A stretch of 11,032 nucleotides of DNA from Candidatus Altarchaeum sp. (GTDB taxonomy: Archaea; Altiarchaeota; Altiarchaeia; Altiarchaeales; Altiarchaeaceae): positions 1 to 11,032 of the forward strand of contig JAGWDQ010000036.1 of NCBI GenBank assembly GCA_018260615.1, given 5' to 3'. The notes under the pieces were generated by a model. The model did no database searches. It had not been told where the DNA came from and worked only from the letters and a program-made list of their open reading frames with translations. Below are positions 1,012 to 11,032 of the stretch, one piece after another. The first letter of the stretch is position 1. Each line of letters begins with the position of its first letter. Position numbers and translations under genes: made by a program.

Positions 1012-1054
1012 TTTCCATCTTTATTATCTTTTTTATCGTACAGGAAAGTTCGTT

Positions 1055-1348
1055 TTATTGTTCTCTCACACCAAGACACGGAGACACAAAGGGCAATGTT
1101 GCTCTGTGACTTTGTGTGAGTATTCTTCTGATTTTTTTATCAGTTCTAACCAAATTTATCGCTTTTTTCGGGCATTTTGATACACATGTCGTGCAACCAT
1201 AGCAATAACTTGTGTCCTGAACAAGACACACATTTTTATTCCCAACCTTTTCTATTTTAAATATCCTCTGACCTTTATGACATACCCCTACACATATTCC
1301 GCAACCATCACATTTTTCGGGGTCTATTGTTATTTGTACCATCGGCAT
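1055..1348 (-). CDS. 2x[4Fe-4S] ferredoxin-like protein with C-terminal extension
   Basis: Two CxxCxxCxxxC motifs: CDGCGICVGVC(H) and CYGCTTCVSKCP, followed by AI. Start at 1348 or 1342. Confidence 0.9.
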   Translation of the reverse strand: MPMVQITIDPEKCDGCGICVGVCHKGQRIFKIEKVGNKNVCLVQDTSYCYGCTTCVSKCPKKAINLVRTDKKIRRILTQSHRATLPFVSPCLGVREQ

Positions 1349-1745: not shown

Positions 1746-2120
1746 ATGTCAAATCCGCACAATACAAAAAATTGCCCGATAATGGGAATCAATAAATGTA
1801 TTTTTGAAGAAACAGGAAAATGCCCGATTACTGAAATTTCAAACATTCTCGCCAAAAGATGGGTGATGCAAATAATGAGGGAATTACTTGCCGGAAACAG
1901 AAGATTCAACGAACTTCAAAAGTCATTAAAAAACATTAGTCCGAGAGTGCTTTCGGAAAGATTGGATGAAATGGAAAAGTACGGGATAATCAAAAGAAAA
2001 ATTTATGCGGAAGTTCCGGTTAAAGTTGAGTATTCATTAACAGAAAAAGGATTGGAATTAAAGGACTCATTAAATGCCCTGACTAAATGGTGGATAAAAT
2101 GGGAATTAAGCAATATTTGA
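1746..2120 (+). CDS. HxlR-family winged-HTH transcriptional regulator (HypR/YodB/QsrR-like)
   Basis: CP...ILAKRWVMQIMREL...RRFNELQKSL.NISPRVLSERLDEME..GII.R..YAEVPVKVEYSLTEKG is the HxlR signature. Three N-terminal Cys (C10, C18, C26). Divergent from the redox genes. Confidence 0.93.
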   Translation: MSNPHNTKNCPIMGINKCIFEETGKCPITEISNILAKRWVMQIMRELLAGNRRFNELQKSLKNISPRVLSERLDEMEKYGIIKRKIYAEVPVKVEYSLTEKGLELKDSLNALTKWWIKWELSNI

Positions 2121-2248
2121 GAAATTTTCTTTTTTATAATTATATTGCTAGAAGTAAGCAGCGGGATTCTAAATTTTCAAGATAATTGTTTAGTGTTATT
2201 CGTTTTCATAGGTCTATTCTTTTATTCGGTTAGAGAATGGTATTTCAT

Positions 2249-2336
2249 ATAACGGATGGAGGATATACGACGTTCGCCGATAGGCGAATGTCCCGAAGGG
2301 CAAGGACGAAGTCCGCCGCGTATATCCTTTTGTTAT
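2249..2336. repeat. attC-like structured element E1 (88 bp)
   Basis: ATAAC-GGAT-GGAGGATATACG-[ACGTTCGCC GATA GGCGAATGT]-[CCC GAA GGG]-CAA-[GGAC GAA GTCC]-GCCG-CGTATATCCTTT-T-GTTAT. Confidence 0.9.
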
Positions 2337-2355
2337 GTGAAGTTGATGAAGGACA

Positions 2356-3936
2356 CTAAATGTCTAATTTGTTATATATTGGCAGCACCGGCGGCATCCA
2401 ATCATTTTCAATTTTCCTGAATTGATCTGTTATCTCAAAGATATGATGTAATGGTGTAACAACCACGCCCGTATCTTCATTTGGTTCCTCTTTAATCCAT
2501 GATTTAAGGTTGTTGAATGAGATATGATACGCATCCTCAAGTAATTCAAGAGCGACTTTTTTCATCTCAAATCCGGAATACAGGAGATACGCTACAACCA
2601 TTAGATCATTTGACTGCAGATTGCAGTATGGCTGGTATGGCGCCATTTTAAATATTGTTGGCTTTTGATGCGTTCTTTCAAATTTTTCAAACCTTTCTTC
2701 ACCCCACAATCCATGTAATTTTCTTAAAATTCTCATCACATCATCCGCCATTCCAAGTCGCGCATAACCAACCATAACATCGTACAATTTTATATTTCTC
2801 CAGCTTCTTTTAAACTGTGCTGATCGATAGGTTGTAAAATGATTTGCCAATTTTTCACCATCCTCAAGCAATTCCTTCCCGGAATCAATATTATTAAATC
2901 TTGCAAAAACAGGTGCAATGAAATTTCTGAATGGTTCTTCTACTATTCTACCCACTTTTTTCCCTTTTAGTTCTTCTTCCTTTGGTTTTGTTTTTTCGGC
3001 AATTAACATGGCAAATTCTAATGCTTTTTTGTCGTTTAATCTTGAATAAGCATAAATTAAACTTAAAATTTCTCCCTCATCGCGCGGAATTTCCAGCATT
3101 GGGCGATTCGCTGCAGGAGAATCTTTAAGGTCGGGATATACTTCACATAACCTGGTATGCATCAATTTATCAATCCTTTTTTCCTCTTTATCAAGTATCT
3201 GTTTTGATTCGGCATATCCATTGGAAATTGAGATATATTCAAATATTCTATGTTCTCCAGAGCATACCGGAGCATCTCCTTTCGTCAATCCAAATATAGA
3301 GGGATTTCGTTTATCCGGAAATAAATCAAATATTTTTGCATCTTTAAAAAATCTTGAGAGCCATAAATTTATTCCTTCATTTAGTTTTCCCGCGCTTGCC
3401 AATCGCCACCATATATCATCCCCATCTATCTCAAAACCAATTTGGACTATATCACAATCCTCATTAAAGTGTTCTGAACGCATACGCATCCGGCATGTAT
3501 CGCCGACAAATATAAATGAGATATCCCTTATTACATCCTCTAATCCAAGAGATGTAGCAATCAAAAACCAATCATTAAACAGACCAGATGGTGCATTAAA
3601 CACACCAAATGTTCTAATTTCTTCAATCTTATTTTTTATATCTTTTTCTATGAATGCCGTTGGAAATCTTTCAAATAATTCTTTAGCAATGGCAAGTTCT
3701 CTTGCACATACCAAATCCCGAAGTATCTCAAATTCTTTATAATAAATTGGTTGAACATCACGATATTTCCCTTTCTTTGAAAAGAAATTTGTATTTTTTA
3801 TATATTCATTCATTTGGTCTATCTCTCCTGCCCGTGCATATATTCTTAGAGCATCTTGAATTGCCATTTCCTTCCAATTTTTATGTTTAGAGCATTCACT
3901 CATTACTTCATTTAATCTATATTCCCATGTTACCAT
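2356..3936 (-). CDS. Hypothetical 526-aa cytoplasmic, largely alpha-helical protein
   Basis: Long ORF, charged and Leu/Ala-rich, no signal peptide or motif I recognise. Its stop codon directly abuts the cassette end arm (2332-2355). Confidence 0.8.
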   Translation of the reverse strand: MVTWEYRLNEVMSECSKHKNWKEMAIQDALRIYARAGEIDQMNEYIKNTNFFSKKGKYRDVQPIYYKEFEILRDLVCARELAIAKELFERFPTAFIEKDIKNKIEEIRTFGVFNAPSGLFNDWFLIATSLGLEDVIRDISFIFVGDTCRMRMRSEHFNEDCDIVQIGFEIDGDDIWWRLASAGKLNEGINLWLSRFFKDAKIFDLFPDKRNPSIFGLTKGDAPVCSGEHRIFEYISISNGYAESKQILDKEEKRIDKLMHTRLCEVYPDLKDSPAANRPMLEIPRDEGEILSLIYAYSRLNDKKALEFAMLIAEKTKPKEEELKGKKVGRIVEEPFRNFIAPVFARFNNIDSGKELLEDGEKLANHFTTYRSAQFKRSWRNIKLYDVMVGYARLGMADDVMRILRKLHGLWGEERFEKFERTHQKPTIFKMAPYQPYCNLQSNDLMVVAYLLYSGFEMKKVALELLEDAYHISFNNLKSWIKEEPNEDTGVVVTPLHHIFEITDQFRKIENDWMPPVLPIYNKLDI

Positions 3937-3958
3937 TTTTTAATGTTTCCTTTTGTTT

Positions 3959-4771
3959 TTAATTTATAAGCATATCTTCTTGTGTTGATCCCGGGCTTAA
4001 AAATCTTATATCGGGATTTTGTTTTAATTTTTCCGTGATTTTTGTTTCTAATTTTTGGACAAGCGTTTCATTTTCCTCATTAACCCCACAGATTTGAACA
4101 TATATTGCATTATGGGACGAAAGGATTATAGGAATAAATGGATTGCCTACTCTCTCATTACCAACCAATAAATATAGTTTATTATCGGGCAAATGAAATG
4201 TTATTACTCTAAAAAGTTGGCTTCTGTATCTACCATTATAAAAATCTTTAATACTGGTGGGAAATATTTTGCCCAACAACGGAAAAACTAAATAATAATA
4301 CCAGTATTTATATCTTCTACGAAAATTACCTAAAGTTGCAGAGTAATCTTGTTTTTTATATTTAATTGGTATTTCGTTTAAGCATTTTTCAACAATACCC
4401 AATGCAAAATTCAATTCTATGTTATAAAATTCCAATAGATGATAAAGGTCTTTACCTATTATATTCTTATGATTATGCCAATTATTAAATAATGAATTAC
4501 TCTTATCTCTCGCCCAGACAGACCGAACTGGAAGTATAACGATTGTATAATAAAATAATGCCATAACAAAAACCCAGGATATGAGGAAAAATAATGTATT
4601 AACATATATATTACTAAAGTCAAAACTATAAACATTAGTGACTACATGAAGCATACTCCCGGTGACTATTAATGACATGAGTGTGATAGGGATCCACATC
4701 AGAATAAACAATATAAATATTATCCAGAATGCTACTTTATTTATTTGAATCGTCCTATAAACCCAATTCAT
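3959..4771 (-). CDS. Hypothetical membrane protein (two N-terminal TM segments, soluble C-terminal domain)
   Basis: Hydrophobic stretches VAFWIIFILFILMWIPITLMSLIVTG and LFFLISWVFVMALFYYTIVILPV; 22-34 bp spacing from its neighbours. Confidence 0.8.
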   Translation of the reverse strand: MNWVYRTIQINKVAFWIIFILFILMWIPITLMSLIVTGSMLHVVTNVYSFDFSNIYVNTLFFLISWVFVMALFYYTIVILPVRSVWARDKSNSLFNNWHNHKNIIGKDLYHLLEFYNIELNFALGIVEKCLNEIPIKYKKQDYSATLGNFRRRYKYWYYYLVFPLLGKIFPTSIKDFYNGRYRSQLFRVITFHLPDNKLYLLVGNERVGNPFIPIILSSHNAIYVQICGVNEENETLVQKLETKITEKLKQNPDIRFLSPGSTQEDMLIN

Positions 4772-4805
4772 TTTGCTCTTTATTTTTTTGATTTTACGGT
4801 TTTAA

Positions 4806-7800
4806 TCAAATTTCAGATATATGTGCACTAACACCATTCCCACTTCCCGCCGGAGCGTCAGACTCTATCTTTCTTACATCTGTTGCCGGTGCATTTCCCG
4901 TTCTTGGTTCAAAATAGTTCCCGTCAACGGTTCTGCCTGCGGTTGCCATTCCCTTATACTCATACACACCAGTATCGGGATTCTCTATATATTTTCTCGT
5001 GCTTGTGTGTGCTACCTGTGTATTTGGGTAATCTTCAAGATATGTTCTTCCGGAAGGCGTAGTATATGTCCTCCCACTTAATCTCCCTTTTGTTACGATT
5101 TTTAACATAACTCCATACCCCGTTTCGTTTTCAATATATTTAATTTCCGTTATTCTTATTCCATTCTCATCCAATACATCTGTCCTGCCCAGTATAGTAT
5201 CACTTCTTGCCAGATGCTCATTATAGATCTTATTCACAATGTTATTGTGCTGTGTCTCTGCTATGTTGTTCAATTCCGAATACTCCGTATGTGTAAGGTT
5301 TAGTATTTTGCTAAATATTTTCCCGGGTGTTGTTTCTATCCCAAGTGCAGAATCTAAATACTCTTGAATTTTTGAAGTTATTTCCTCCTGATCAGAGCCA
5401 TTAAAAATACTTTCAACATTTGTGGTGTGCCACAACTGAGTATTGATATGTGTATATCCCGCTTTGTATCCAAGTGCCGCTCCGGATGACCCAACTAAAG
5501 ACAATGTTTTTATCAGGGTCCCATCGTCATTCCGACACGCAACAAATTCCAGACCTCCTGAAATCGCTCCTGCAGGTGTGGGTGTACTGCCTTGTGCAAA
5601 CCCTCCAGTACATGTACCTCCATACTCTGAATTGCCTTCAATACCCCAAACTAATGTGGCTTCTCCCTGTATCGATATGTCCGAAAAAAGATCAATTAAT
5701 GAACTTACTCCCCCGGTCGCCTCTGCAGGACCAGCAAGTTGAGCTATATCTGTTAATCCTACACTAAGTATGAGTCCCGCGCCCAATTCCGCCGATTCTG
5801 TTGTTATTATACTCACATCATGTGTTTTAAGATTGATAAGTAATCCTCCCTGTACATCAACACCTGCTGATACGACACAATTAAAACTTGCTGTACCACC
5901 AGTCGCAGGGATTATAACTATCGCATCCGCACCCGTCAGGTCATGAATACTGTCCAATACATCAATTACATACTCTGACTCTGTTTTATTTGAATAAACA
6001 ACAATATTAACTGATTTTAAATTAACAGAAGAATTATCAATATATTTTGGAACATCAAAGTCCAGATAATATGTTTCGTTTTGTGAAATATTTACTTGTC
6101 TTGTATCATTACAAATTATGCTACCATTTTCAGCATAAGCAGTTAATATTATCGTATGATTATCACTATAATTGGCAAGAATTGAATATGTGAATCTTGT
6201 TTGCGAATCATTTTCTTCAATATCTTCCAATCTCACGATTTTTAATGGATCCGCATCTTTTGAAATTTTAGAAAATGTCGCTTTCCGTTTGAGGTAATGG
6301 GTTGAATTATGAGGGAGTATAATCTCTTTTCCGACAGTATAATTGCCGTTGAGATCTAAATTTAAATCAGAATTAATTCCGGAATTATTTATAACAGTGA
6401 CAACTATCTCTTTTGGAATGCTGTTCGTTGTTTCGGAACTTGATTTCAGGATAACGGTTGCTGTGTAATTGTTGTTTGTTATACTAAAATTATCAAAAAT
6501 AATTCTATTGGAATCTATATTTATAGTTCCGTTAATGCGGATAATTGTTTCATTTGAAACCAAAAGCAATTGTGCATTTTTTATTTCAGATAAATCGCTC
6601 TCAGCAGATATACTGAATGGAAATTCATCAAGATAAATTACTTCATGGGAATCATTATTTAAAATTTGTGTTAAATTGCCGCAAGAGTAATTCAACCAGT
6701 TCACTTTATAAGGGGAGTAGGTAAAGCTGGCAGTATTGTTTATATTAATTTTTCTTGTATTTGTGGATATGTTTCCTGTACTGTAAATCCCTGATGCGGT
6801 GTACCAATAACCCTCCGAACTATATGGCAGGTTATAAAGAACAAATTGCGAAACTCCATTTATATCTGTTGTACTGTTTAAAACAATTGTTAAATTTGAA
6901 TTCCACACATTTAATTGCACAGAAATGTTCTCTTCCGGGTATCCAAGATTAGTAGATTTGATGCCAATGACCGAAACAGATATTTGAGTATTATTTATTA
7001 AATAGGAGGGGATTGGTTTTTCCATCAAAGGGTTGGTTTCTGTTTTATTGTCATCGTCAAATTGACCTAAATATTCTATTTTTCTATAATATAATGAACA
7101 GGTATTAACACAATCAGAAACTGCAGATATATCATTATAATTATTGGTTGTGGTGCATGTGTTATTATCTCCTGAATTTGAACCAATATTGGAAATGTCA
7201 TAATAATCACCTCCTGATTGATTGTTATTGCAGAATATATTAAAGTTTATTGTATTGCTTGCAGCAGTACTTGTCGTATAAAAACCATGACGATTATTGT
7301 TGTTTGCAGTATTATTGATTAAATTATTATATTCTGAGTAAGAAGATAAATAAATCCCATAATAATTTGAATTTGCCGTATTACCGGTTATGTTATTATT
7401 ATCCGAATACCGCAGATAAATTCCGCGATAAAAATCAGTAACTACACAATTCCTGATTACATTATTGTCTTTACTACTTAAATAAATTCCTTTATCAGTT
7501 CCAGAACCGTCACCGCCAATTGTATTTCCCTGGCAGTCAAAGATTTTATTGTTGAAATTTCCAGGGTTGTCAATGCAAGTTCCTGTGTGGTTTATTATGC
7601 TGGTATTTAGTTTGACTGTATATGCATTATTGTTAATGTTCAGAGCATCATAGCAATCCGAACAGCTGTCACACGCGCATACTTCCCCCATGGTCCCTGT
7701 GCAGTTATTGGCACTTGCGAGTGTGCTCACTCCAAGGATAAATACAAAAGTTAGTATTCCATACATTACAGTTCTCCATAAATTTTCATTCAATGGTCCA

Positions 7801-7856
7801 AAACCCTTATCCGCTCTCTCATGAACTTCAGCGGAACAACTATTTTTGTTTTGCAT
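4806..7856 (-). CDS. Large secreted/surface protein: N-terminal NosD/right-handed beta-helix (PbH1) repeats, beta-rich middle, Gly/Ala-rich segment and uncharacterised C-terminal domain
   Basis: Signal/anchor segment (YGILTFVFILGVSTLASA). Motif CDSCSDC...TCI...IFDCQGNTI.G, then repeated GIYL....NN.I..N.. units. Many NxS/T sequons. Confidence 0.85.
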   Translation of the reverse strand: MQNKNSCSAEVHERADKGFGPLNENLWRTVMYGILTFVFILGVSTLASANNCTGTMGEVCACDSCSDCYDALNINNNAYTVKLNTSIINHTGTCIDNPGNFNNKIFDCQGNTIGGDGSGTDKGIYLSSKDNNVIRNCVVTDFYRGIYLRYSDNNNITGNTANSNYYGIYLSSYSEYNNLINNTANNNNRHGFYTTSTAASNTINFNIFCNNNQSGGDYYDISNIGSNSGDNNTCTTTNNYNDISAVSDCVNTCSLYYRKIEYLGQFDDDNKTETNPLMEKPIPSYLINNTQISVSVIGIKSTNLGYPEENISVQLNVWNSNLTIVLNSTTDINGVSQFVLYNLPYSSEGYWYTASGIYSTGNISTNTRKININNTASFTYSPYKVNWLNYSCGNLTQILNNDSHEVIYLDEFPFSISAESDLSEIKNAQLLLVSNETIIRINGTINIDSNRIIFDNFSITNNNYTATVILKSSSETTNSIPKEIVVTVINNSGINSDLNLDLNGNYTVGKEIILPHNSTHYLKRKATFSKISKDADPLKIVRLEDIEENDSQTRFTYSILANYSDNHTIILTAYAENGSIICNDTRQVNISQNETYYLDFDVPKYIDNSSVNLKSVNIVVYSNKTESEYVIDVLDSIHDLTGADAIVIIPATGGTASFNCVVSAGVDVQGGLLINLKTHDVSIITTESAELGAGLILSVGLTDIAQLAGPAEATGGVSSLIDLFSDISIQGEATLVWGIEGNSEYGGTCTGGFAQGSTPTPAGAISGGLEFVACRNDDGTLIKTLSLVGSSGAALGYKAGYTHINTQLWHTTNVESIFNGSDQEEITSKIQEYLDSALGIETTPGKIFSKILNLTHTEYSELNNIAETQHNNIVNKIYNEHLARSDTILGRTDVLDENGIRITEIKYIENETGYGVMLKIVTKGRLSGRTYTTPSGRTYLEDYPNTQVAHTSTRKYIENPDTGVYEYKGMATAGRTVDGNYFEPRTGNAPATDVRKIESDAPAGSGNGVSAHISEI

Positions 7857-7943
7857 TTTTTGTTTAATTTTGTTTGATTTTATTTATTTTGATTTAAAGT
7901 TAATAAATGTTTAAATTCTAAATTTGTCCGTAGTCAATTTCAT

Positions 7944-8031
7944 ATAACGTATGCGATTAAGCGAAGTTTTGCGTCAGCAAAATATGGGTGAAGTTTCCTG
8001 CAAGGAAACGTAACCGCTTAATCGCTGTTAT
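7944..8031. repeat. attC-like structured element E2 (88 bp, divergent sequence)
   Basis: ATAAC-GTAT-GCGATTAAGCG-[AAGTTTTGC GTCA GCAAAATAT]-GGGTGAA-[GTTTCCT GCA AGGAAAC]-GTAAC-CGCTTAATCGC-T-GTTAT. The TTAAGC/GCTTAA stem resembles a canonical attC L box. Confidence 0.9.
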
Positions 8032-8146
8032 GCTCTCTGACCGAAGGGAAGACGAAATTTTAGTGCAACGATGCCGAAGGTAAAAATTTCGAGTTCAAAA
8101 ATCGTGCGTGGGGTGGAAGTTTTAGAAATTAGTGAGGACTGATTAA

Positions 8147-8485
8147 CTAATGAAAAATAGTCAGATACAGAAAAATAAGTCCTAATATTAAGAATATAAT
8201 ACCCATACCTCGATATATTTTAGGAATTACTTTTCCTGGTTCCCATTTAGAACCTAAAATTTTCATCCACCAAACCTGAAATTTTATTAGCCAATCAGGT
8301 TTTATAGATAACAATAATCCTATAAGAGTAAATGGAACTGCTAGGAACCAGCCGTATTGTGCCCAAAATATATCGCAAGGAATTTCTTGGTCATTTACAT
8401 AACATTTTGCCATTACTGGACTAATTATCATCAACAATGTTAAAGTTGAAATTCCAAAAAGTATAAATTTATTTTTCTGTATCAT
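8147..8485 (-). CDS. Small membrane protein with signal peptide (DUF6199-like C-terminal pattern)
   Basis: N-terminal hydrophobic leader ending ...SPVMA-KC, a Cys pair (CYVNDQEIPC), a TM helix ending KPDW, W...W...EP...R.MG and a final TM helix. The DUF assignment is from pattern recall only. Confidence 0.7.
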   Translation of the reverse strand: MIQKNKFILFGISTLTLLMIISPVMAKCYVNDQEIPCDIFWAQYGWFLAVPFTLIGLLLSIKPDWLIKFQVWWMKILGSKWEPGKVIPKIYRGMGIIFLILGLIFLYLTIFH

Positions 8486-8495
8486 TCTGTATCAT
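8476..8495 (-). repeat. 10-bp tandem duplication of the start region (ATGATACAGA x2)
   Basis: The + strand reads TCTGTATCAT at both 8476-8485 and 8486-8495. Confidence 0.9.
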
Positions 8496-8519
8496 ATTGA
8501 AACTATAATTATTCTTATA

Positions 8520-8527
8520 TTTATAAA
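8520..8527 (-). promoter_or_regulatory. Putative archaeal TATA box of the 112-aa gene cassette
   Basis: Minus strand TTTATAAA preceded by A-rich ACAAAAACAAATG (BRE-like), about 25 nt upstream of the ATG at 8495. The AT-rich background weakens this call. Confidence 0.45.
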
Positions 8528-8581
8528 CATTTGTTTTTGTCAGCCCGAACGTATCTTAGTAGCACGATTTTTGAATTGAGC

Positions 8582-8669
8582 ATAACGGAATAAGGGTATC
8601 CGAAGTTGCCCGATATGGCAATTTCACGGAGTGCAAGGGCGATAGCCCGTAGCGGATACCCTTTGTTAT
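8582..8669. repeat. attC-like structured element E3 (88 bp)
   Basis: ATAAC-GGAAT-AAGGGTATCCG-[AAGTTGCC CGATAT GGCAATTT]-[CAC GGA GTG]-CAA-[GGGC GATA GCCC]-GTAG-CGGATACCCTT-T-GTTAT. Confidence 0.92.
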
Positions 8670-8708
8670 CGGATGTAATGCGGAGGCATCTTATTCAATC
8701 AGAATGTT

Positions 8709-9263
8709 TTAATATGGAAATGTGATTATTAGGATTGCTATTAGTGCAACCACTATGATGATCACCCCTACAAGTGATATAAGAAGGACACCGATTGCCT
8801 TGCCTTGTGTAAATTCATGTGCCACCCTGATAGCCCGGTATGTAAACACTAAACTTGCAATTTGGTATATTAAGATACCCAAAAAAGGTATTATCGCAAA
8901 TATTCCTGGCGCATACGGAAGAGCCATCGCCCTTAAAAAACTAGTATAATCTGCTTTTCCACCAGCGAGTTTGCAAAATATATGGAAATATCCAGTAGTA
9001 ATTGGCCAAGCTATAAGTGCAATAATAGGGAATATGACAATATCCAACAATCCAAACCCTAATGAACCAAAACGAATACTTTTTTCTTCAATTCCCGGAA
9101 CAAGAAAAGATTCGAGCAATCCACCAATTGAAATAAAAATAGATGCAATTATAATGATAATGGCACCAGATACTAATGCATCTTTATCATCTCGTGCTTC
9201 TGCAAATACTTCCCTATCTGAACTCAGAACTCTTTTCATCCTGTTAAATACTATGTTCATCAT
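8709..9263 (-). CDS. Yip1-domain (YIP1 family) multi-pass membrane protein
   Basis: VL..D.EVF.E N-terminus, TM helices, and the conserved ...KLAGGKADY...LRAMAL...P...IIPFLG...AIRVAHEF..GKA pattern of prokaryotic Yip1 proteins. Confidence 0.88.
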   Translation of the reverse strand: MMNIVFNRMKRVLSSDREVFAEARDDKDALVSGAIIIIIASIFISIGGLLESFLVPGIEEKSIRFGSLGFGLLDIVIFPIIALIAWPITTGYFHIFCKLAGGKADYTSFLRAMALPYAPGIFAIIPFLGILIYQIASLVFTYRAIRVAHEFTQGKAIGVLLISLVGVIIIVVALIAILIITFPY

Positions 9264-9362
9264 TTTTCTTTATTTTGGATTTTTATTTTTTAATTAATTA
9301 TTAAACATGGATTTAAATATAAATTTGTATGGTTTTGTAATTCTGCCGAAGCATTATTTCCG

Positions 9363-9450
9363 ATAACGGATTAAGGGTATCCGAAGTTGCCCGATAGGGC
9401 AATTTCACGGAGTGCAAGGGCGATAGCCCGCCGCGGATACCCTTTGTTAT
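9363..9450. repeat. attC-like structured element E4 (88 bp, near-identical to E3)
   Basis: ATAAC-GGATT-AAGGGTATCCG-[AAGTTGCCC GATA GGGCAATTT]-[CAC GGA GTG]-CAA-[GGGC GATA GCCC]-GCCG-CGGATACCCTT-T-GTTAT. Confidence 0.92.
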
Positions 9451-9511
9451 CGGATGTAATGCGAAGGCAGTTTATTCAGTTGGACTGTCGTTAGTTAAAC
9501 ACCTATAAATT

Positions 9512-10942
9512 TTATGATGCTTTTACTCTTTTGACATTTGAGATACACTCATCTTTATCCTTCTTTTCTGATATTTTCTCGCAGAGAGAGCCATCCAGTT
9601 TTGCTATAGCAACCTCTTTAACACACCAATTTTTCCCTATTGAATTTGATGTTTTGTCACACAAGAAGACATCTTGTTTTTTTTCAGCAAGTCGGCTAAT
9701 ACATATGTCTTTATACCCCATATCCATGAATCCATACTTATATCCATACATATCTTTAAGTTCAGATACAGATGTATCCCCTATATCCCCACACAGAGAG
9801 ATATTCTGTTTTGCCACAGCAATCTTATAAATACACCACCTTTCATACCATGAATTTGATTTTTCACACAGAGAGATATCCTCTCTTGTCGCTGCAACTC
9901 TTAGAATACACCCTCCTCTTCCACCTAAAAGCGTTGATGCGTATGTCTTAGAGTGGGTCGCTGTTGCTATACTTGACTCATAGTTTTTGGTATAAATATA
10001 GCCATCCATCGATGTATATCTCTCAGAGTATCCTCTTATTATGCTCCATAATGTTTCCCCTAATGATATTCTCTCACAAAGTGAGATGTCTCCTTTCGCC
10101 GATGCAACCCACCCCATACAATTTTCTCTCGCAGAGGCATCGTATGTCTTAGATATTACAGAATTCTCTGATATCTTTTCACAGAAAGAAACATCTTTTT
10201 TATCCATTGCAAATAAGTAAATACACTCATTTTTATCTTCTGTTTTATTCATCGAATCACAATAAGAGACGCCCTCTATTTTTATCTTTTTATATGCCTC
10301 TTTTTTTCCTTGGTAACATTTATCATAACAATCTTTTGAATCGCAATATAAATCGCAATATGTCTCAACAACACCTTTACATTTTTCACCTGAACATACA
10401 CCTTCATTACACTTATTATTCTTACAACATAGCTCACTAATTCCTCCACATTTTTCACATTTCCCATTAGAGCATGCACCTTCACCACAGATATTATTCA
10501 TACAGCATAATTCACTAATTCCTCCACAACTTAAACATTTACCTTCACTACAAGCCAAGTTAGAAGATGAACATTTGTTGCCTTCACAGCACAACTCACC
10601 AGTCCTTCCACATTTTTCACATTTTCCATCCGAACACGCCCCCACATCACAGAGATTGTTATTACAGCACAACTCACCAGTCCTTCCACATTTTTCACAT
10701 TTTCCATCCGAACACGCCCCCACATCACAGAGATTGTTATTACAGCACAACTCACCAATTCCTCCACAACTTAAACATTTATTTTCACTACAAGTCAAAT
10801 TAGAATATGAACAATTGTTACTCTCACAACAATTTTGATTTAAATTCCCACATCCTCCAGTACACCCACTGATTATTATAAATCCAACAATGGCCAGCCC
10901 TACAATTCCATAAGTAAATAAATTTTTATTTGTATTTTTCAT
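9512..10942 (-). CDS. Cys-rich lipoprotein with six disulfide-type repeats and C-terminal A..K.D.S.CEKI-type repeats
   Basis: Probable start ATG 10942 (ORF track starts at TTG 10960). Basic N-terminus, hydrophobic core and lipobox-like ISG-C27. Repeats CGxxxE/QxCCxxxxCxxxxCxxxxC, then repeats such as AMDKKDVSFCEKI, ASAKGDISLCERI, AIAKLDGSLCEKI. Confidence 0.88.
   Translation of the reverse strand: MKNTNKNLFTYGIVGLAIVGFIIISGCTGGCGNLNQNCCESNNCSYSNLTCSENKCLSCGGIGELCCNNNLCDVGACSDGKCEKCGRTGELCCNNNLCDVGACSDGKCEKCGRTGELCCEGNKCSSSNLACSEGKCLSCGGISELCCMNNICGEGACSNGKCEKCGGISELCCKNNKCNEGVCSGEKCKGVVETYCDLYCDSKDCYDKCYQGKKEAYKKIKIEGVSYCDSMNKTEDKNECIYLFAMDKKDVSFCEKISENSVISKTYDASARENCMGWVASAKGDISLCERISLGETLWSIIRGYSERYTSMDGYIYTKNYESSIATATHSKTYASTLLGGRGGCILRVAATREDISLCEKSNSWYERWCIYKIAVAKQNISLCGDIGDTSVSELKDMYGYKYGFMDMGYKDICISRLAEKKQDVFLCDKTSNSIGKNWCVKEVAIAKLDGSLCEKISEKKDKDECISNVKRVKAS
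10586..10757. repeat. Exact 78-bp intragenic tandem repeat (2.2 copies)
   Basis: Identical units start at 10586 and 10664, with a partial third at 10742. They encode GELCCNNNLCDVGACSDGKCEKCGRT. Confidence 0.95.
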
Positions 10943-11003
10943 TTTTTCATGAATTATCAATTACTATATTTAAATGTAAAAAGTTATATTTAGCTGATTT
11001 TAC

Positions 11004-11032
11004 AATTCTGCCGAAGCATTATTTCCGATAAC
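11004..11032. repeat. Cassette end arm plus AAC core of a fifth element (E5), cut by the window end
   Basis: AATTCTGCCGAAGCATTATTTCCGATAAC is identical to 9339-9367, which leads into E4. Confidence 0.9.

Follow-up and report, generated by a model that had tools for sequence, protein, structure and literature searches.

The closest described counterparts of the elements analysed here are the attC sites of integrons. Those of Vibrio (VCR) carry a large, branched and variable terminal structure, the extrahelical bases of attC lie on the R''-L'' arm, i.e. the 3' arm of the bottom strand, and the bottom strand of the canonical attCaadA1 has a GAA tip (Bouvier et al. 2009, PMC2727003). Cassette arrays, mostly without IntI, have been reported from archaeal MAGs, with attC sites that are more similar within a genome and site types common to Archaea and Bacteria (Ghaly et al. 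2022, PMC9668308); the arrays described below are alike in these respects. That survey demanded canonical attC models and an insert-bearing IntI. Two Xer systems are also relevant. The attP(+) of CTX-phi is single-stranded DNA whose fold mimics dif, giving the Xer-type enzyme XerCD two dif-like arms around a mispaired centre to act on (reviewed in PMC5357621), and archaeal XerA/dif (Cortez et al. 2010, PMC2958812; PDB 4A8E, 5HXY) shares with the present system a recombinase that aligns with XerA from end to end and a site laid out as arm, 6-bp spacer, arm.

The window, the whole stretch of 11,032 nt under analysis, comes from a groundwater archaeon and contains four elements, E1 to E4 (Table 1). 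We estimate at roughly 0.7 the probability that these are attC analogues, i.e. recombination sites of an integron-like array of gene cassettes, which would fold as branched single-stranded DNA. The original prediction, made from the letters alone, described four elements of different sequence, identical 88-bp length and covarying multi-branch fold. All four are at the places claimed, E3 beginning one base right of the implied start, and each measures exactly 88 nt from ATAAC to GTTAT. The quoted inner stems and hairpins 1 (22 nt), 2 and 3 are all in place; E2 has, after hairpin 1, a single long hairpin (flanks GGGTGAA...GTAACC) where E1, E3 and E4 carry two. The sequences do differ, pairwise identity being 76-79% for E1 against E3 and E4 and 58-62% for E2 against the other three. 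However, E3 and E4 are 95% identical, so that the independent sequences number three, not four. As single-stranded DNA, the minimum-energy folds of the + strand of E1-E4 are multibranched, at -18.8 to -22.5 kcal/mol (z = -4.0 to -6.6 relative to dinucleotide shuffles).

Table 1. Elements, element parts and cassette genes in the window; bit scores are those of covariance model R1.
Feature	Position	Strand	Remarks
E1	2249..2336	+	four-way subtype; 74.9 bits
E1, ATAAC	2249-2253
E1, bulge	2254-2259		GGATGG
E1, stem 5' arm	2260-2269
E1, hairpin 1	2270-2291
E1, hairpin 2	2292-2300		CCC-GAA-GGG
E1, hairpin 3	2304-2314		GGAC-GAA-GTCC
E1, stem 3' arm	2319-2328
E1, GTTAT	2332-2336
E2	7944..8031	+	three-way subtype; 64.3 bits
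E3	8582..8669	+	four-way subtype; 81.9 bits
E4	9363..9450	+	83.1 bits
E4, flanks lengthening the outer stem	9352-9362 and 9451-9461
E4, ATAAC	9363-9367
E4, bulge	9368-9372		GGATT
E4, stem 5' arm	9373-9383
E4, hairpin 1	9384-9405
E4, hairpin 2	9406-9414
E4, linker	9415-9417		CAA
E4, hairpin 3	9418-9429
E4, stem 3' arm	9434-9444
E4, T	9445
E4, GTTAT	9446-9450
ATAAC, fifth junction	11028..11032	+	at window end
Three-gene cassette	2356..7856	-	1016 aa (beta-helix), 270 aa and 526 aa; downstream site E1
Cassette gene, 112 aa	8147..8485	-	no Pfam match; downstream site E2
Cassette gene, 184 aa	8709..9263	-	Yip1-domain membrane protein; downstream site E3
Cassette gene, 482 aa	9512..10960	-	cysteine-rich repeats; no Pfam match

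Selection on the branched shape, the first half of what the original prediction had claimed, is supported by compensatory changes in the main stem and in all three branch hairpins. Across 72 distinct copies, pairing amounts to 95% in the main stem, where 10 of the 11 pairs show two-sided changes, and to 89% in the structure as a whole; sliding the partners by 1-3 columns lowers the latter to 30-44%. In the four-way subtype, represented by 18 copies in 7 genomes, compensatory changes are seen at two of the three pairs of hairpin 2 and at three of the four pairs of hairpin 3. The energy model has no tandem G.A pairs, so that minimum-energy folding overlooks the second hairpin of 35 copies out of 119; hence the branch claim rests on covariation and not on hairpin counts. 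At the end of hairpin 1 the covariance-model alignment wobbles by one base. Past ATAAC/GTTAT the outer stem shows no covariation, pairing there being no better than with the flanks of other copies, which is expected if the two flanks come from different cassettes. The outer arm is paired at only about 8 of its 12 positions, through conservation rather than covariation.

Across copies the branch point is fixed, and so is the base of hairpin 1 (AAGTT/AATTT, in which 68 of 72 copies have a G.T pair), while free variation is found in the loop of hairpin 1 (18-71 nt) and in hairpins 2 and 3 (15-33 nt). A constrained multi-way junction had been considered unusual. The branched tip itself is not, as the Vibrio VCR illustrates (PMC2727003); distinctive is that the branch point is fixed and that hairpin 1 has a conserved base. 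We read these two features as part of a predicted recombinase-binding arm and not as a size ruler.

The second half of the claim, selection on size, is not supported. A length histogram and a covariation analysis of further copies had been proposed as the check: the covariation bore out the shape, and the histogram revealed broad length variation. The 119 distinct copies range from 70 to 134 nt (median 83) and only 8% measure 88 nt. Compensation between the length of hairpin 1 and that of the remaining tip is ruled out (rho 0.05, covariance about 0); the two lengths are uncorrelated, so their variances simply add. Since branch lengths do not compensate one another, the 88-nt length itself is under no selection and total size is unconstrained. 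Equal lengths of 88 nt are restricted to this window, and another array (G003:C2) mixes sites of 98, 79, 81, 76, 106, 90 and 76 nt. The one subtype to which E1, E3 and E4 belong is most often 88 nt long, and E2 equals them by chance. The chance that three independent lengths all come to 88 is about 0.5-2%, which leaves a mild residual oddity. What is constrained is thus the arms and the position of the junction, and the length ruler first proposed is to be corrected in this sense.

The folding strand was assigned from two asymmetries. The motif C-GNA-G occurs 148 times on the model strand and 3 times on its complement (shuffles, 25 +/- 4); in an independent cross-phylum set the counts are 112 and 2. 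The model strand is also the more stable one in 67 of 72 copies and, in the second set, in 42 of 47. Mini-hairpins of the type d(GCGNAGC) are extraordinarily stable in DNA (PMC13037366, PMC3201870). The folding strand so defined is the non-coding strand, which in the window is the + strand. In the source genome the gene 3' of the folding strand is antisense to it and ends beside the site in 23 of 23 cases, and the same polarity holds in 76 of 81 cases at other loci. Because C-GNA-G is confined to the strand opposite the cassette genes, the sites probably fold as single-stranded DNA, in the manner of integron attC.

We propose the following anatomy. Each site follows a cassette gene, and its non-coding strand would fold once single-stranded. 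The outer arm would consist of ATAAC/GTTAT and 3-4 flanking pairs, followed by a central region whose two sides are unequal (about 10 nt 5' against 6 nt 3', with a 4-nt bulge) and by an 11-bp stem, the inner 7 bp of which are semi-conserved as CG(G/T)ATA(T/C), with a three- or four-way junction on top. Hairpin 1 would stack directly upon the main stem, its base (AAGTT over AATTT, with the G.T pair) contributing the five distal pairs of an inner arm of 12 bp, AATTT^CGTATAT, which would repeat the outer arm AATTTCGTATAA. Hairpins 2 and 3 would be a variable insert at ^, stabilised by the C-GNA-G mini-hairpin loops. Both the coaxial stacking and the split arm are predictions read off sequence logos. 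Folded in this way, the site would imitate the duplex 12-6-12 dif-like core of the attI-like site. A Xer-like tyrosine recombinase devoid of the integron-integrase insert would then cut at ATAA|C and exchange one strand.

The sequences that suggest this arrangement are as follows. The 5' flank has the consensus AATTTCGT followed by ATAA, and the sequence running from the end of hairpin 1 into the stem is AATTT | CGTATAT. In the folded element the two arms stand 6 nt apart on the 3' strand. The attI-like core, ATTTCCGATAA-CGACTT-ATATCCGCAGTT, has in 5 genomes a 12-6-12 layout of two inverted arms and a ~6-bp spacer, which is of the Xer/dif type; sites of that type have arms of about 11 bp and are cleaved where arm and spacer meet. 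The complete attI-like site has several palindromes and an N5-GTTAT end, and is located downstream of the recombinase in 5 loci. The unpaired bases of the elements (4-5 nt versus 1 nt) lie on the 5' arm of the folding strand, i.e. the R'-L' arm, in about 90% of the copies, and the stem above them is fully paired.

These same arms raise the question of whether the elements are ordinary double-stranded dif-like sites, as in Xer-dependent modules, with the hairpins a by-product of inverted arms. The right end of the element can be written as a duplex, CGGATAC-CCTTTG-TTATATGA, consisting of arm, 6-bp spacer and arm; the attI-like site is a 12-6-12 duplex and the recombinase is XerA-like. Nevertheless, we consider this explanation unlikely. 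A duplex site would need neither the compensatory changes in the three tip hairpins nor the strand asymmetry of C-GNA-G, which is about 50 to 1. Moreover, in the duplex the inner arm lacks its AATTT half, which sits 20-30 bp away. Other differences from archaeal XerA/dif (PMC2958812) are that the sites are present in multiple copies flanking mobile genes and that the recombinase has about 70 additional N-terminal residues. CTX-phi, for its part, integrates a phage genome at the chromosomal dif (PMC5357621) and is not a cassette array with an attI-like platform of its own.

As to the enzyme, a Xer-like gene heads the array, co-directional with the cassettes, in G003:C2, G030:C3, G056:C49, G056:C11, G056:C42 and the Dehalococcoidia contig G061:C98; in the first four of these it is followed by an attI-like site. 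In the Dehalococcoidia contig the site next to the recombinase resembles a short hairpin site and not a duplex attI. The array-linked subfamily bears the N-terminal region mentioned above. Its alignment with XerA is contiguous, whereas that with VchIntIA covers residues 7-170 and 249-318 only. In the source genome, the 3' end of a recombinase gene on contig C79 overlaps the start of contig C38, on which there are an attI-like site and an array. It must be noted that the C79 recombinase scores above the NCBI XerA equivalog cut-off and could be a housekeeping Xer enzyme instead of a dedicated integrase. The attI-like site beside the window's own array (contig C5, locus L021) has no adjoining recombinase, so that the enzyme would have to work there in trans.

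Could these be ordinary attC sites whose canonical IntI is simply absent from the incomplete assemblies? Much is shared with canonical attC and the VCR: AAC...GTT cores with a presumptive crossover at AA|C, the position after a gene, a non-coding folding strand, a centre that stays unpaired, covariation that follows the structure, a tip that varies and is sometimes branched, and a GAA loop on the recombining strand. Furthermore, most reported archaeal integrons are CALINs (attC clusters without integrase). Still, a hidden IntI seems quite improbable. No match to TIGR02249, the integron-integrase family model, exceeded the cut-off in 11 genomes, which include the source genome and one assembled as a single contig. 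In 10 of the 11 the sub-cut-off matches are split, all of them skipping model positions about 180-235, and the eleventh has no match. The extra unpaired bases are clustered in the central region on the arm opposite to that which defines the extrahelical bases of attC. In contrast to canonical attC, the inner arm is conserved in sequence (CGKATAY plus AATTT), split by the branch point and common to the attI-like site, the outer arm reaches into a conserved AATTTC flank, and the linked recombinase lacks the IntI insert. A smaller departure from the attC consensus, in which the outer cores RYYYAAC and GTTRRRY pair on folding, is that the second R of GTTRRRY is mostly T in this family. Unlike in the archaeal integrons of PMC9668308, the recombinase is XerA-like and co-directional with the cassettes rather than divergent. 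In the accessible parts of that paper's text and supplements we found neither Altiarchaeota nor the related assembly accession nor the family motifs, and the literature searched yielded no description of Altiarchaeota integrons or of Xer-based integron-like arrays. Surveys defined by the IntI insert and canonical attC models would miss or mis-orient this family.

Whether the sites amount to a second class of integron across both domains, with an insert-less Xer-type recombinase reading 12-bp arms on a folded single strand, is a more tentative matter, to which we give somewhat less than even odds. Such a class would have its inner arm built across the three- or four-way junction by the stacking of hairpin 1 on the main stem, which would make the branch an integral part of the binding site. 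The central bulge, and not extrahelical bases, would set strand choice and limit the reaction to a single strand exchange. The dif-like arms, the junction-split arm, the strand-specific mini-hairpin loops and the bulged centre provide handles for testing an integron reaction by a plain Xer-like enzyme.

Evidence of mobility comes from natural variants. Contigs C120 and C5 overlap the window and continue from the junction at its end into an attI-like site composed of three imperfect palindromes of the type (T)ATATCCG...CGGATAT; E1 is the final site of the array and the most distant from this attI-like site. On the metagenome contig L021 the same attI-like site is joined straight to the Yip1 cassette, the 482-aa cassette and E4 being absent, and identity with the window stops at 9367, the C of ATAAC in E4. 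The window and L021 are thus natural variants that differ by one extra cassette at the attI-proximal position. Likewise, the 171 nt to the left of E1 recur beside a copy on contig C17, and the two sequences part directly past ATAAC. In both pairs ATAA|C is where homology ends. Non-autonomous transposable repeats (of MITE or REP type) that land between genes by chance would also give many dispersed copies, some of them solitary, at which assemblies break. They would not be expected to keep a fixed polarity to the upstream gene (23/23 and 76/81), to be organised in arrays with a recombinase and an attI-like site at the head, or to gain and lose entire cassettes at the ATAAC/GTTAT ends, where target duplications were not seen; such an origin is very improbable. 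Least credible of all is a role of the fold in RNA, as a terminator, 3' UTR stabiliser or small RNA: the sites do lie just past stop codons, but an Rfam scan of the window at E <= 1 gave nothing for the elements and only a chance miRNA-like match within a gene, GNA triloops with a C-G closing pair are a motif that stabilises DNA, and, since the optimised strand lies antisense to the genes, the mRNA would bear the weaker complement.

Sites of this kind are widespread. A pattern scan of genome contigs produced many chance matches, and only loci confirmed by the covariance model were kept. R1 finds 24-25 copies in the source Altiarchaeales genome, about 21 of them full-length; of the 61 genomes of the class, 35 have copies. 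Other archaeal hosts are Methanosarcinales, Methanophagales, Methanocellales, Thermoplasmata, Archaeoglobus and Nitrosotalea; the bacterial ones are Dehalococcoidia, WOR-3, Aminicenantes, Ignavibacteria and Patescibacteria. With few exceptions the 119 copies have (A/C/T)TAAC and GTTA(T/G/A), and their core is 90% paired. The family would move gene cassettes in many uncultured archaea and bacteria, with near-identical sites across phyla. A Methanosarcinales genome, for instance, has a 95% identical copy of E4 between unrelated flanks.

The four elements E1 to E4 belong to a non-canonical integron variant, present in both domains, as its attC-like sites. All four were found in the window with the stems and hairpins originally described for them (see table). 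When the + strand of each is folded as single-stranded DNA, the structure obtained is multibranched, at -18.8 to -22.5 kcal/mol, and scores z = -4.0 to -6.6 relative to dinucleotide shuffles. E3 and E4 are 95% identical, E1 shares 76-79% with these two and E2 shares 58-62% with the others; the four thus amount to three independent sequences.

Sites and cassettes in the window
Feature	Position	Strand	Description
E1	2249-2336	+	ATAAC to GTTAT, 88 nt; four-way subtype
E2	7944-8031	+	ATAAC to GTTAT, 88 nt; three-way subtype
E3	8582-8669	+	ATAAC to GTTAT, 88 nt; four-way subtype
E4	9363-9450	+	ATAAC to GTTAT, 88 nt; four-way subtype
Fifth ATAAC junction	11028-11032	+	window end
Three-gene unit with beta-helix protein		-	cassette
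112-aa protein		-	cassette
Yip1 membrane protein		-	cassette
482-aa cysteine-rich protein		-	cassette

The source genome is archaeal (2.2 Mb, 33% G+C, with archaeal SSU and LSU rRNA genes) and carries 24-25 copies of the site over 12 contigs, as counted by iterated nhmmer search and then with R1, a covariance model built from 21 copies after that search. Within the class to which this genome belongs, R1 also detects the site in 35 of 61 genomes. In a wider survey, one genome per species was scanned for the pattern and the matches were filtered with R1. This extends the family to Methanosarcinales, Methanophagales, Methanocellales, Thermoplasmata, Archaeoglobus and Nitrosotalea among the archaea, and to Dehalococcoidia, WOR-3, Aminicenantes, Ignavibacteria, Bacteroidia, Syntrophobacter and Patescibacteria among the bacteria. 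A Methanosarcinales MAG, from another archaeal phylum, contains an 88-nt site 95% identical to E4 (locus L118, 688-775) in unrelated flanking DNA. The GCGGATAAAAG subtype is also shared with Dehalococcoidia and Patescibacteria. Archaeal integrons and CALINs have already been published (Ghaly et al. 2022; PMC9668308); neither the text of that paper nor the supplements searched mention Altiarchaeota, and our literature search found no paper describing this site family.

That selection acts on the shape of the element, as first proposed, is supported by compensatory changes in the main stem and in hairpins 1, 2 and 3 of the tip. Standard pairs fill 88.7% of the cells in an alignment of 72 copies, which was fitted to the model and is thereby biased towards the structure, as compared with 69% when partners are shuffled and 30-44% when they are slid by 1-3 columns. 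Among these copies the 11-bp main stem is 95% paired, with both-side changes in 10 of its 11 pairs, and the upper stem of hairpin 1 has such changes in all four. Covariation extends to the branch hairpins, as seen in 18 copies of the four-way subtype from 7 genomes: pairing is 100% in hairpin 2, where two of three pairs are compensatory, and 93% in hairpin 3, where three of four are. An independent MAFFT alignment (A2) and a MAFFT alignment of the subtype (A4) give the same picture. The majority of copies have three-way junctions. Minimum-energy folding of 119 copies predicts two hairpins per tip in 71, three in 13 and one in 35, the single-hairpin calls largely reflecting second hairpins held by tandem G.A pairs, a type of pairing absent from the energy model.

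Selection on size, the other half of the original prediction, is refuted by broad length variation. The 119 distinct copies span 70-134 nt (median 83, interquartile range 78.5-87) and nine of them measure 88 nt; the 72 distinct copies from the class range from 72 to 134 nt (median 84.5), and full copies in the source genome from 76 to 88 nt. Hairpin 1 varies from 18 to 71 nt in the class set and the remaining tip from 15 to 33 nt, without correlation between the two (Spearman 0.05, p = 0.67), and their variances sum to that of the total length. Arrays mix lengths: successive sites measure 98, 79, 81, 76, 106, 90 and 76 nt along G003:C2, a contig of another genome, and 84, 84, 76, 83, 73 and 76 nt on the Dehalococcoidia single-cell contig G061:C98. 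The equal length of the four elements is a local coincidence (chance about 0.5-2%) and not a constraint, since E1, E3 and E4 share the four-way subtype, whose lengths run from 82 to 92 nt with 88 as the most frequent (5 of 20), E2 belonging to the three-way subtype.

The probable folding strand of the family, referred to here as the model strand, is the + strand in the window. The pentamer C-GNA-G occurs 148 times on this strand in the class set versus 3 times on the complement (25 +/- 4 in shuffles), and 112 versus 2 times in an independent cross-phylum set. In DNA, GNA triloops with a closing C-G pair yield mini-hairpins of extraordinary stability (PMC13037366, PMC3201870), and the canonical site attCaadA1 has a GAA tip on its bottom strand as well (PMC2727003). 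The model strand is the more stable one in 67 of 72 class copies (Wilcoxon p = 3e-12) and in 42 of 47 copies of the cross-phylum set. The gene lying 3' of the site on this strand is antisense, with its stop codon beside the site, in 23 of 23 cases in the source genome and 76 of 81 outside it. It is therefore the cassette's non-coding strand that is optimised, which fits the integron bottom strand and argues against a role of the fold at the mRNA level. On the + strand, the 20-100 nt after GTTAT are purine-rich (seen at window 8032-8130 and 3' of other copies as well) and contain further C-GAA-G mini-hairpin motifs, e.g. ACCGAAGGG and GCCGAAGG, that may be decayed site remnants or an accessory structure.

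In the proposed outer arm of the site, the model-strand 5' flank has the consensus AATTTCGT, followed by ATAA|C. The inner arm would be made of the last bases of hairpin 1 and the 3' arm of the stem, which read AATTT | CGTATAT, with G/T and T/C variants. Thus, both arms are copies of one 12-mer. In the mechanism that we infer from sequence, the arms of the folded site would lie on opposite strands and point at a central region, as in a dif-type site. This region comprises 6 nt on the 3' strand and about 10 on the 5' strand, the surplus probably forming a bulge of 4-5 nt that adjoins the presumed cut. In five genomes the core of the attI-like site, the multi-palindrome site at the array head, shows these arms too, separated by a 6-bp spacer. 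Hairpin 1 follows the stem directly, no base being left unpaired between them (G then AAGTT, 92-100% of copies), so that stacking would complete the inner arm; hairpins 2 and 3 would branch off at a one-strand break in that arm. A G.T pair, conserved in 68 of 72 copies beside a pair that covaries between A-T and C-G, may serve to keep AATTT on the recognised strand. The branch point would be fixed because it lies inside this predicted protein-binding arm, the parts beyond it being free to vary. Of the claim that a constrained multi-way junction is unusual, the fixed branch point stands, but VCR sites are already known to have a branched tip (PMC2727003).

The system is like an integron in its attI, cassettes, folded attC and AA|C crossover. 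It departs from the canonical family in two defining traits: its unpaired bases are on the R'-L' arm, whereas the extrahelical bases of canonical attC sites belong on the R''-L'' arm (PMC2727003), and its recombinase is devoid of the IntI insert. In 10 of 11 genomes tested, the integron-integrase model TIGR02249 matches the enzyme below cut-off, in two pieces that skip model positions ~180-235; the eleventh gave no match. The recombinase passes the archaeal XerA model (238 bits, cut-off 220), aligns with VchIntIA at residues 7-170 and 249-318, and aligns contiguously with Pyrococcus XerA. The array-linked subfamily has an additional N-terminal region of ~70 residues. The closest mechanistic parallel is CTX-phi attP(+), a folded single strand on which a Xer-type enzyme acts (PMC5357621).

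All intervals between sites in the window hold - strand genes. Two other contigs of the source genome, C120 and C5, overlap the window's right end and continue after ATAAC with three imperfect palindromes of the type (T)ATATCCG-N-CGGATAT and no further element. The same multi-palindrome site, ending in N5-GTTAT, comes right after a Xer-like recombinase gene on contigs of other genomes (G003:C2, G030:C3, G056:C49 and G056:C11), and after such a gene at the C79/C38 join of the source genome. The cassettes that follow are co-directional, each ending in a site of the expected orientation. G061:C98 carries the recombinase together with six sites. Between 349 and 7207 of this locus (L098) five sites face one way and the sixth, by a TAG-interrupted recombinase gene, is reversed; the arrangement is a two-armed or mirror layout.

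In a JGI metagenome contig (L021, 2440-2615, compared with window 9363-11032), a natural population variant, the Yip1 cassette directly follows a C5-type attI-like site. The match to the window stops at position 9367, where the ATAAC of E4 has its C; at the attI-proximal position the 482-aa cassette with E4 is therefore polymorphic for presence or absence. E1 and a copy on C17, also of the source genome, have 171 nt of left flank in common and diverge immediately after ATAAC. This segment (window 2083-2253, C17 316-485; 94% identity) includes the 3' end of an HxlR gene and stands beside a different site on C17. It would be one and the same array end from a second strain, or else a terminal segment common to both.

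The cassettes seem to carry conserved promoter-like leaders. Those of the Yip1 and 482-aa cassettes (window 9269-9367 and 10925-11032) are 78% identical over ~100 nt, the first 24 nt after GTTAT being identical, and a different leader (AATTGACTACGGAC...TTTAGAATTTAAACATTTA) is common to other cassettes (window 7774-7948, G056:C49). The 482-aa gene contains tandem ~78-nt repeats (window 10376-10819; 97% and 79% identical) encoding cysteine-rich modules. A dispersed, MITE-like repeat of ~115 nt lies at window 1025-1140 and has >80 copies across the source genome. Here it runs into the 3' end of a small ferredoxin-like ORF (1055-1348, - strand), and another copy adjoins the C5/L021 attI-like site.
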